IMG/VR virus record: IMGVR_UViG_3300035507_000051
Location: 34,311 to 98,310 of that record
Source: a virus
Taxonomy: Duplodnaviria > Caudoviricetes
Direction: 5' to 3' (one strand)
Length of the DNA stretch: 64,000 nt
Shown: positions 56,130 through 64,000 of the stretch, in pieces
Layout of the letters: each line of letters begins with the position of its first letter
How positions within the stretch are numbered: position 1 is the first letter of the stretch
Position numbers and translations under genes: made by a program
The notes under the pieces: generated by a model
The model's database searches: none
Told to the model about the DNA's origin: nothing
What the model saw: the letters and a program-made list of their open reading frames with translations, nothing else

Positions 56130-56160
56130 CAAAGGTAATAAATTATATTTATACTACAAA
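56130..56160 (-). promoter_or_regulatory. Bacteroidota sigma-A-type promoter for tRNA-Arg genes
   Basis: TTTG, 19-nt spacer, TACCTTTG ending 5 nt before the tRNA 5' end. Confidence 0.65.
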
Positions 56161-62418: not shown

Positions 62419-62730
62419 TTAGAGATCTTGAACCACCAAGACCTCACATTTGTCAGGTCTGATGATACCATAGCGAGGAAATTCCTCGTCAGGGAGGGAC
62501 ACTTCAAGCTCACCGAGCTTAAGCAAGGCCTTCTCTATGTCTTGTGCTGCTCCTTTGGAGAGTACTAGACAGTCCTGCATTTTACCGTCAGGTAATTCCA
62601 CAGGTTTGGGAAGACGGATAAAGGCAATGAGGGTGTCAGTACCTTTGTACTTCTTACCTGTGCATGACTTCTTGGCTGCAACATCTTTGGTGCTAAAGCC
62701 ATTTTCTTGATAGAAAGCTTTGAGGTTCAT
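62419..62730 (-). CDS. First gene of the early arm, hypothetical
   Basis: 103 aa with GC-richer codons, followed by a terminator. Confidence 0.7.
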   Translation of the reverse strand: MNLKAFYQENGFSTKDVAAKKSCTGKKYKGTDTLIAFIRLPKPVELPDGKMQDCLVLSKGAAQDIEKALLKLGELEVSLPDEEFPRYGIIRPDKCEVLVVQDL

Positions 62731-62775
62731 TGTAAGAGATGGATTAAGTGTTAAACTTTTGGAGTGACTAGCCTG

Positions 62776-62816
62776 CTAGGCACCATGGGGGACTCCACCC
62801 CCATGGCGAAGCCTAG
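62776..62816. other. GC-rich hairpin at the early/late divergence point
   Basis: CTAGGC-A-CCATGGGGG-ACTCCA-CCCCCATGG-CGAA-GCCTAG in otherwise AT-rich DNA. Confidence 0.65.
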
Positions 62817-62974
62817 GGAGGGCATGGGTTTCCTATATTACATTCATGATAATCAAAATAAAATTCAAAAAAATCAGGAAAAATTTTAGAAAAAAAAATT
62901 CTAGAAAAATTATAATCCTCATTTACAACTAATTAAGTAAAATACTTTTCCATTTTAATTTTTTCATTAATTTA

Positions 62975-63011
62975 TTTGCATATATAAATTTTTTTATCTA
63001 ACTTTGCAGTA
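62975..63011 (+). promoter_or_regulatory. Bacteroidota sigma-A-type late promoter
   Basis: TTTG (62975-62978), 20-nt spacer, TAACTTTG (62999-63006). Confidence 0.75.
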
Positions 63012-63046
63012 CTGAGAGATACAGTATCAGTAGACATAGCCATTCT

Positions 63047-63290
63047 AATAAGTTGAATGCTTAGGAATGAAGAGCCTAATCTAGGATTGAGAGTCTCCAA
63101 GCCAACATGGGAAAGTAAAGGATACCATCAGTAGGGCAGAGGTAATTGGAGCTAGAGATAATGAAGAGAGAGTACTAATAATATATAAACGCCTCTCAAG
63201 ACTAGATTAGTGTTATACCAGGGGTCTTAATTGGTGAATTGACCCAGGTCTCTTCATGCCTGAGGATTTAATTTGATGAGCTTGTTACTG
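63047..63290 (+). ncRNA. Candidate large structured RNA or late leader
   Basis: Nested long-range helices at 63060-63074/63250-63264, 63076-63084/63202-63210, 63087-63093/63193-63199, 63095-63100/63146-63151 and 63222-63226/63241-63245; no ORF in the track. Confidence 0.55.
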
Positions 63291-63327
63291 AGAGGGGGCA
63301 TAAATATGCTTAATTGTTATTTAAAAT

Positions 63328-64000
63328 ATGTGGAAAGATTTATCAATGTCTGAGAAGGCTAGGTATATTAAGTTAGGTGTTCAAGGTGGTATAAAAGATA
63401 TTGGTACTATCTAGGACACCTATAATAATTATATATAGGGACAGTATGCCTAGTGGAAGTAGAAATTAGGTAATTATTGGGGCTAGGATTTAGACTAGGA
63501 TGACTATGATTACCAGAAGTATTATATGGATAACCCTAGAAGAGCAGAAGATTAGTTAAATGCCATCTTAGGGGGATCTAAATAGCATTTTCCTGATGGT
63601 GGTAAGAGTGGGTCTTATAAGAAAATAAGCCATCCTACTTATCCTGATTTAGGGGAAAAGAGCTGGAGTAATAATGACACTGTTTTTCATTTATCTGATA
63701 GGTAGTTGGAAGATAGTGATCGGGTATTAGATTATTTAGGTGCTGATTTAGATTATAACAATGGAGGTACTAAAGCAGTATATAATGGGGGTTATGTGTT
63801 ACCAGAGTTAACTGTAACTCCTAGGGAATCCTATACTAACATGAAACCTAATCCATATAATACAGGATATGTGTATAGTGATAGGGAGTTTGCTAATGGG
63901 GGTAAAGTGCATAGGTTTGATTTAGGTGGTAATTCAGATCCTATCTATGGCCCATATCAATTAAATGAAGTAATTAAAGTAGGTAATAGCAATACTCCTA
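63328..64000 (+). CDS. Late (probably virion cargo) protein, 3' partial, TAG=Gln
   Basis: ATG 63328 MWKDLSMSEKARYIKLGV..; frame +1 broken by TAGs; HFPD..YK..HPT, LPELTV and FANGG..FDLGG motifs. Confidence 0.7.

Follow-up and report, generated by a model that had tools for sequence, protein, structure and literature searches.

The gene-free stretch at the head of the plus-strand arm of this crAss-like phage genome is a real, strongly conserved folded RNA, and covariation among its homologues is the decisive evidence for this. The RNA family spans more than 85 crAss-like gut phage sequences and is uncatalogued, within the catalogues and literature searched. crAss-like phages are the most abundant human gut viruses, and the control of their late transcription and the purpose of their tRNA arrays are poorly understood; here a large RNA with unusually strong comparative support is found at the exact start of the late/tRNA arm. 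Two cultured phage-host pairs carry it, K. tikkala with B. cellulosilyticus WH2 and crAss001, whose version is a divergent branch, with B. intestinalis, so the question of its role is now testable. The reading we favour, with somewhat less than even confidence, is that the RNA acts in cis, as a structured leader or switch for the late arm.

The window analysed (64 kb) is the final part of a complete crAss-like phage genome of 98,310 bp, the closest named relatives of which are Kehishuvirus tikkala, bajarodcaudo virus 1 and Mahstovirus cr106_1. The coding strand switches at 62731–63327, where the minus-strand genes stop (at 62730) and the next plus-strand ORF begins (at 63328). From the promoter to this ATG there is no ORF longer than 42 aa under table 11 or with TAG read as Q, and the five tRNAs found by ARAGORN in the window all lie away from the RNA. 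The RNA extends over approximately 63010–63300 on the plus strand, with a conserved core at 63058–63265, and heads a plus-strand arm of about 47 kb and 34 or more genes. The corresponding plus-strand half of crAss001 is the late module, which is on at 30–60 min and for which the host polymerase is thought to be required, while the minus-strand genes adjoining it are early (PMC8375218). A GC-rich perfect hairpin (CCATGGGGG-ACTCC-ACCCCCATGG, 62776–62816) lies where the genes of the two strands diverge, shortly before the first minus-strand gene.

The ORF from 63328 is open only if TAG is a sense codon, and nine TAGs occur in the part that is within the window. The termini of the genome (1–127 and 98184–98310) repeat one another over about 127 bp, so the ORF leaving the window resumes at the start of the record. 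Joined in this way (window 63328–64000 and L043 1–5046), it becomes a giant ORF coding for about 1,900 aa and containing 57 TAG codons in frame; searches of Pfam and PHROG gave no match to it. The RNA precedes this ORF and the tRNA array follows it, and the suppressor tRNA(CTA) on which it depends is encoded further downstream (L043 6121–6193). The features of the locus, and the other full-consensus promoter sites that precede RNA genes in this genome, are as follows:

62975–63006, plus strand: promoter (full consensus), with −33 TTTG (62975–78) in the extended box TTTGCATAT and −7 box TAACTTTG (62999–63006)
63008–63014, plus strand: predicted transcription start, from the breakpoint of tikkala/crAss001 identity
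63011–63031, plus strand: P0 hairpin (ACUGA/UCAGU) of the long-form subfamily
63047–54 / 63279–86, plus strand: outermost helix, AAUAAGUU/AGCUUGUU, from sequence complementarity
63060–74 / 63250–64, plus strand: P1, CUUAGG-A-AUGAAGAG/CUCUUCAU-G-CCUGAG, from covariation
63076–84 / 63202–10, plus strand: P2, CUAAUCUAG/CUAGAUUAG, 93–95% of cells paired and covariation in all pairs
63087–93 / 63193–99, plus strand: P3, UUGAGAG/CUCUCAA, six of six pairs covary
63095–100 / 63146–51, plus strand: P4, CUCCAA/UUGGAG, 96.7% paired, 12–38 double changes per pair
63101–03 / 63135–37, plus strand: P4a, GCC/GGC, part of the core domain 63095–63151
63107–10 / 63125–28, plus strand: P5, AUGG/CCAU, 99.1% paired, with a conserved 14-nt loop
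63139 and 63192, plus strand: tertiary Watson-Crick pair G63139:C63192, from mutual information (GC 28, CG 25, other 2)
63152–63192, plus strand: joining strand J4/3, about 40 nt, nearly invariant (CUAGAGAUAA .. AAGAG .. ACUAAUAAUAUAUAAACG), from invariant columns
63160–63169, plus strand: internal AAUGAAGAG(A), pseudoknot partner of 63249–56, with compensating variants
63217–63249, plus strand: P6 hairpin (ACC/GGU, GGGUC/GACCC, AAUU/AAUU), 95.3% paired, eight of eight pairs covary
63222–26 / 63241–45, plus strand: GGGUC/GACCC helix of P6, from covariation
63247–63264, plus strand: invariant GGUCUCUU and the outer P1 3′ strand, from nearly invariant columns
63265–63327, plus strand: 3′ trailer to the start codon, holding ACUGAGAG (63287–94), an exact copy of 63011–18
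About 56130–56160, minus strand: full-consensus promoter site
L043 5071–5102 and 6076–6107: full-consensus promoter sites

The overall architecture is a rod of P1, P2 and P3 capped by P4, P4a and P5, from which a strand of about 40 nt leads back to P3, with one or two P6 hairpins between the 3′ strands of P2 and P1. All six nested helices listed in the earlier note were located in the sequence where that note had placed them, and five of the six are backed by compensating changes in 61 distinct relatives; the outermost is specific to the lineage of this genome and lies outside the covariation support. The region also folds better than shuffled controls, the plus strand giving −88.9 kcal/mol (z = −3.4, none of 100 shuffles as stable). 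Covariation, which the earlier note had proposed as a check, was computed on an alignment of 62 sequences (61 distinct) and also on a 39-sequence version: 90.1% of cells were paired, against 30–48% when the 3′ partners were slid by 1–3 columns. Both-side changes were seen at 46 of 48 pairs, and the observed values were reached by none of 500 shuffles (61 distinct sequences). In P1 all eight inner pairs have both-side changes, on an alignment fitted to P1. A covariance model was needed because RNAalifold on plain MAFFT alignments gave only the well-aligned helices; P4 and P5 are also recovered in that way, with no structure fitting. G-U pairs are frequent and alternate with G-C (e.g., UG in 30 versus GC in 28 at one pair), indicating that the plus strand is the RNA.

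Several details outside the main helices are likewise conserved or covary. Positions 63113, 63115 and 63122 of the P5 loop covary by mutual information as (A,G,A) or (G,A,G), a three-way non-canonical set, and the P6 region holds two hairpins in some relatives. Members with the extra 5′ hairpin P0 form a long-form subfamily that includes this genome, and in 13 of them the P0 stem covaries (CUAG/CUAG, GUAA/UUAC, CAAG/CUUG). The motif that is present both as the P0 5′ strand and as a copy about 35 nt before the start codon changes in step across lineages, being CUAGGA twice, GUAAGA twice or UCAAGG twice.

Comparison with known RNA classes gave no assignment. At the gathering score of Rfam 15 the RNA is unmatched, only tRNAs elsewhere in the window passing, and with E values up to 10 (1.3-kb and 300-nt slices) the only matches are chance ones to snoRNA and miRNA models, at 12–20 bits. 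The earlier note had seen no core motifs of tRNA, tmRNA, RNase P or group I introns here, and this was upheld: ARAGORN found none at the RNA and no Rfam models matched. No description of the RNA was found in the literature searched; an anonymous prior listing among the supplementary candidates of PMC8040213 is possible. With no match in Rfam or the literature, strong covariation and a position at the head of the plus-strand arm, the original description as an undescribed phage ncRNA or late-operon leader stands.

Two known classes were considered in particular and rejected. RNase P RNA has words in common with this RNA (GGAAAGU, AGGGCAG, GGUAA), but neither RF00010 nor RF00011 matches at E 10, the words common with a Bacteroides RNase P RNA are at chance level (E 0.3–5) and in the wrong order, and GGAAAG occupies a local hairpin loop, the stem of which covaries, with no long-range P4 (CR-I/CR-V). 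For a group I intron there is no RF00028 match at E 10 and no upstream exon; there is no room for a 5′ exon because the RNA starts a few nucleotides after the promoter. It is therefore scarcely credible that the element is a degenerate known ribozyme (RNase P RNA or a group I intron), to which the superficial words GGAAAGU, AGAGGUAA and AUAAACGCCUCUC would point, or a chance or DNA-level element; no Rfam model matches at E 10, the RNase P words are at chance level, an upstream exon is impossible, and the strand-specific G-U covariation rules out an element acting at the DNA level only.

A blastn search showed conservation of the central part in three named phages, none of which has an annotation there. 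Two independent degenerate patterns, one of the P5/J core and the other of the long joining strand J4/3, retrieved 39 and 97 IMG/VR stretches, nearly all on contigs of 90–106 kb. A covariance model (R1), built from 12 relatives with the structure set by hand, gave exactly one match per locus in 39 plus 47 phage loci, the first 39 scoring 61–225 bits, and a single copy in this genome (window 63058–63265). Across 185,579 prokaryote species genomes there were 119 pattern matches, and among the 80 loci listed of these only two to four are real, all on 2–9 kb contigs of MAGs; the RNA therefore belongs to phages, and the bacterial matches are most likely mis-binned phage fragments. In seven loci (L044, L063, L066, L073, L079, L084 and L087) the R1 match is split in two parts, indicating a large insertion inside the RNA. 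One of these, L066, is carried by an IMG/VR contig of 282,124 bp, compared with the usual 90–106 kb.

Every homologue is preceded by the sequence TTG(C/G)ATATGTCA-N13-TAnnTTTGC, which we take to be the Bacteroidota −33/−7 consensus with an extended, partly palindromic −33 region. In relatives this region is extended to TTTGCATATGTCA, also partly palindromic, and could be the binding site of a regulator. The full consensus (TTTG-N17–21-TAnnTTTG) occurs at only 10 sites in the 98-kb genome, four of which directly precede RNA genes, namely the structured RNA, the tRNA array, the amber-suppressor tRNA and tRNA-Arg. A host-type promoter of full consensus is thus present where the earlier note had placed a late promoter, while the term late follows from synteny only, and tRNA genes use the same type. 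The host RNA polymerase probably transcribes the RNA from this promoter. The sequences of tikkala and crAss001 match with 100% identity as far as TTTGCACCA and diverge wholly from the next base on, and on this basis the 5′ end of the RNA is provisionally placed there; P1 begins 3–50 nt past the −7 box across homologues. No terminator-like site was found between the RNA and ATG 63328, and in most loci no promoter was found between the RNA and the next ORF.

The 3′ strand of P1 has two possible partners. Its invariant CUCUU, within the GGUCUCUU segment, is complementary both to the 5′ strand, forming P1, and to the internal AAGAG of the joining strand, forming a pseudoknot; in this genome the same 9-mer serves as both purine strands (63066–74 and 63160–68). 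The pairings that compete are 63067–74 with 63250–57 for P1 and 63162–69 with 63249–56 for the pseudoknot. On an alignment unfitted to the pseudoknot, its five core pairs form in 66–97% of sequences, and A-U is replaced by G-C in six sequences at each of two positions. Where the 3′ strand is altered, compensations are found in the internal strand (AAGGG/CCCUU, AAGCA/UGCUU, GGGAG/CUCCC, GAGGGG/UCCCUC, AGGAGAG/CUCUCCU and AGAGGU/ACCUCU). Compensations are present in P1 also, on the alignment fitted to P1. Pairing of the 5′ strand is confined, in several divergent members, to those parts of the 3′ strand that flank the pseudoknot target, so the two helices may alternate or be partly simultaneous. 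Since both P1 and the pseudoknot covary, the competing pairings suggest a switch, in which the two would alternate.

These observations are the main reason for preferring a leader or switch, together with the fixed promoter-proximal position and the lack of a terminator behind the RNA. The RNA begins at the predicted transcription start, the arm behind it is the late module in crAss001, and each genome has a single copy; leaders that bind a ligand or factor have this same build, in which junction nucleotides are conserved and peripheral helices covary. From the observed RNA, fold, promoter, position and competing pairings we infer the following scheme. A self-contained structured module of about 210–300 nt would be the first product of the plus-strand arm, ahead of the giant ORF, the tRNA array with its amber suppressor and the structural genes. 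The invariant 3′ CUCUU would either close P1 with the 5′ strand or form the pseudoknot with the internal AAGAG, and a bound factor (a phage or host protein, a tRNA or a small molecule) would select which pairing forms. The choice of pairing would then set whether transcription, or the transcript, continues into the late arm, an output of read-through or licensing. Against a leader, the downstream gene differs widely among phages, which is unusual for a gene-specific regulator, and no expression platform or terminator was found after the RNA. The tRNA array and the suppressor tRNA have promoters of their own, of the same type, and would therefore be independent of it.

Among the 46 loci with at least 3 kb of downstream sequence, same-strand tRNAs follow the RNA in 41, within 2 kb in 31 of them, with a mean of 10.1 tRNAs per locus downstream against 1.4 upstream; no opposite-strand tRNA was found downstream of the RNA (79 of 79 loci). 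Of 13 loci inspected, 12 have a separate promoter, of the extended type seen before the RNA, in front of the first tRNA. The interval from the RNA to that promoter holds, depending on the phage, a HExxH protein, a PI-PLC-like protein, tiny ORFs, nothing substantial or, in this genome, the giant recoded ORF. In the tikkala type (L001 4185–4270), the RNA is followed by a hairpin with CUCCU in its loop and then by AGGAGGGAGGGAUAAC, and a mini-ORF of five codons (MSNFK) stops 8 nt short of the gp3 start. Some of the phage tRNAs reported by ARAGORN have odd anticodon loops, two of four bases (cctt and attc) and one of two bases (tc) (L004 1894–1969; L020 11414–11491; L009 8074–8146), and these could be frameshift-suppressor-like or artefacts.

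This context bears on a rival explanation to which we give real, if clearly less than even, weight: that this is the gene of a stable structured RNA working in trans, be it an RNA-protein scaffold, an assembly of RNA only or a ribozyme. It would be a smaller analogue of ROOL and GOLLD, produced along with the phage tRNAs from the same class of strong promoter, and its target would be translation, tRNA biology or host defence. This reading is suggested by a promoter of the tRNA type, downstream genes that are unrelated, and the exchange of alleles. The extended promoter is the same as that of the tRNA arrays, the long P1 holds the two ends of the molecule together, a trait of many stable RNAs, and the 40-nt strand and the loops are extremely conserved in more than 85 phage sequences despite the unrelated proteins encoded downstream. 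Divergent alleles are also swapped between close phages with identical flanks, the allele tracking the host species, and ROOL and GOLLD too are phage RNAs near tRNA islands (10.1101/2024.12.08.627333). Free-standing RNA genes tend to move, however, whereas this RNA is invariably at the start of the arm; it has no terminator behind it and no consistent partner protein, TROVE being present in 13 of 40 genomes and a reverse transcriptase being absent from this one.

Returning to a role in cis, the promoter-proximal position might also be explained by processive antitermination, a role offered in the earlier note. An element like HK022 put or Bacillus EAR would modify the host polymerase where the roughly 47-kb arm begins, allowing it to read through tRNA genes and terminators, which overlaps with the leader reading. 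The element directly follows the first promoter of an arm that runs over 34 or more genes, and the plus strand of the genome has few other consensus promoters. The RNA is, however, far larger and more complex than put or EAR, there are promoters without the element closer to the structural genes, and no terminators to suppress were identified, so that we regard this explanation as improbable.

An R1 search of crAss001 detected nothing, and its leader (MH675552 660–1000, about 330 nt, unannotated) folds, taken alone, no better than shuffles (z = 0.19). The idea that the RNA is missing from crAss001, its leader being an unrelated cassette, was dropped when hybrid members showed homology: three with low R1 scores (L057, L046 and L072) carry, inside the R1 match, a 58-nt block that is 79–85% identical to crAss001 843–901. 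When aligned, the R1 and crAss001 types are colinear, with P3, the P4 stem, GAAAAGGUUGAGG.UAAA, GGGAU and AACCGCC/AAACGCC in common, and the crAss001 leader has the same locus, promoter and P3/P4 architecture as the R1 RNA. The conserved blocks of the crAss001 leader are common to cr128_1 and the hybrid members. Since hybrids bridge the two types and the alignment is colinear, the R1 and crAss001 RNAs are branches of one superfamily, between which, to judge from the hybrid sequences, domains have been swapped. The P4–P5 domain of crAss001 differs from that of the R1 RNA, and the crAss001/cr128_1 type is without the 26-nt AAGAG..ACUAAUAAUAUAU segment; as this branch does not have the internal AAGAG, the proposed switch is not universal in the superfamily.

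Comparison of tikkala with crAss001 (L001 3860–4420 and L102 560–1150) shows 104 nt of 100% identity up to the start of the RNA, sequence that cannot be aligned across the RNA, and about 75–85% identity in gp3. The crAss001 allele is present in 25 of 25 B. intestinalis isolates of PhiCrAssBcn and an R1-type allele in the B. cellulosilyticus phage tikkala, and it looks as if alleles of the RNA have been exchanged between phages of two Bacteroides host species. The leader reading can be widened to propose that in Crassvirales of the Asinivirinae type a new class of large leader RNA times or licenses the late arm as a whole (tRNAs, suppressor tRNA, virion genes), by a P1/pseudoknot switch that responds to a phage or host factor, and that close relatives among these phages pass its divergent alleles to one another on moving between Bacteroides host species; in this full form we consider it possible but rather unlikely.

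crAss001 also encodes, in the neighbouring early operon, a TROVE/Ro60-like protein (gp96, an early gene), and genes for such proteins are present in 13 of 40 RNA-bearing genomes (L003, L006, L013–L015, L023, L034, L039, L045–L047, L057 and L061). A Y-RNA-like partner of a Ro60/TROVE protein would fit these neighbours, the presence of a TROVE protein in the host genus (the B. thetaiotaomicron control genome matched) and an end-to-end stem carrying invariant sequence. A TROVE gene is, however, absent from this genome, from its nearest relatives and from two thirds of carriers, and the RNA shows no Rfam Y-RNA match at E 10 and no tRNA-like T-arm, making a Y RNA very unlikely.

Of the roles suggested in the earlier note, one related to recoding is unlikely. 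Kehishuvirus tikkala has no stop-codon reassignment (PMC10028833) and yet carries the RNA, which is therefore not tied to the recoding of TAG. For a role in packaging no support was found. Further candidates were set aside. The duplicated 9-mer raised the possibility of a reverse-transcriptase template, but there is no RVT_1 match in the complete genome, and hence no adjacent reverse transcriptase of the kind that goes with retron, DRT or UG27 ncRNAs. The UG27 ncRNA adjoins its own reverse transcriptase and is described as three stem-loops (PMC9226505), unlike this RNA. An anti-Shine-Dalgarno decoy was rejected because SD-like motifs are not enriched before the phage genes (10% versus 7% in the control on the plus strand, 4% versus 4% on the minus strand).

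Among known systems, riboswitch aptamers and T-box leaders are similar in their location at the transcript 5′ end, the closing P1, the conserved junctions, the covarying arms and a 3′ strand with two partners. In the RNA described here the alternative partner of the P1 3′ strand is located inside the RNA and there is no terminator-like site; it differs from those classes in having no Rfam match, no recognisable expression platform and downstream genes without a functional theme. HK022 put, Bacillus EAR and the lambda PR′-6S leader are likewise RNA elements made first from the promoter of a long transcript. They are of 70–190 nt, with simple hairpins and proven roles in antitermination or termination; any such role of the present RNA is conjectural. 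The stable RNAs of phage T4 (species 1 and 2) are small phage RNAs, of function not known, that are encoded with tRNA genes; their place is within the T4 tRNA cluster or at its end, and they are processed from tRNA precursors, unlike the RNA here. ROOL (RF03087) and GOLLD (RF01998) are structured RNAs of phages and prophages, also near tRNA islands and with many covarying helices and pseudoknots (10.1101/2024.12.08.627333). At about 580 and 800 nt they are longer than the 210–300 nt found here, and there is no sequence or model match between them and this RNA, which is distinguished by the Bacteroidota hosts of its phages and its fixed place behind the first promoter of the arm. After ROOL and GOLLD, the family represents a third, smaller and Bacteroidota-specific case of phage RNAs that accompany tRNA islands.
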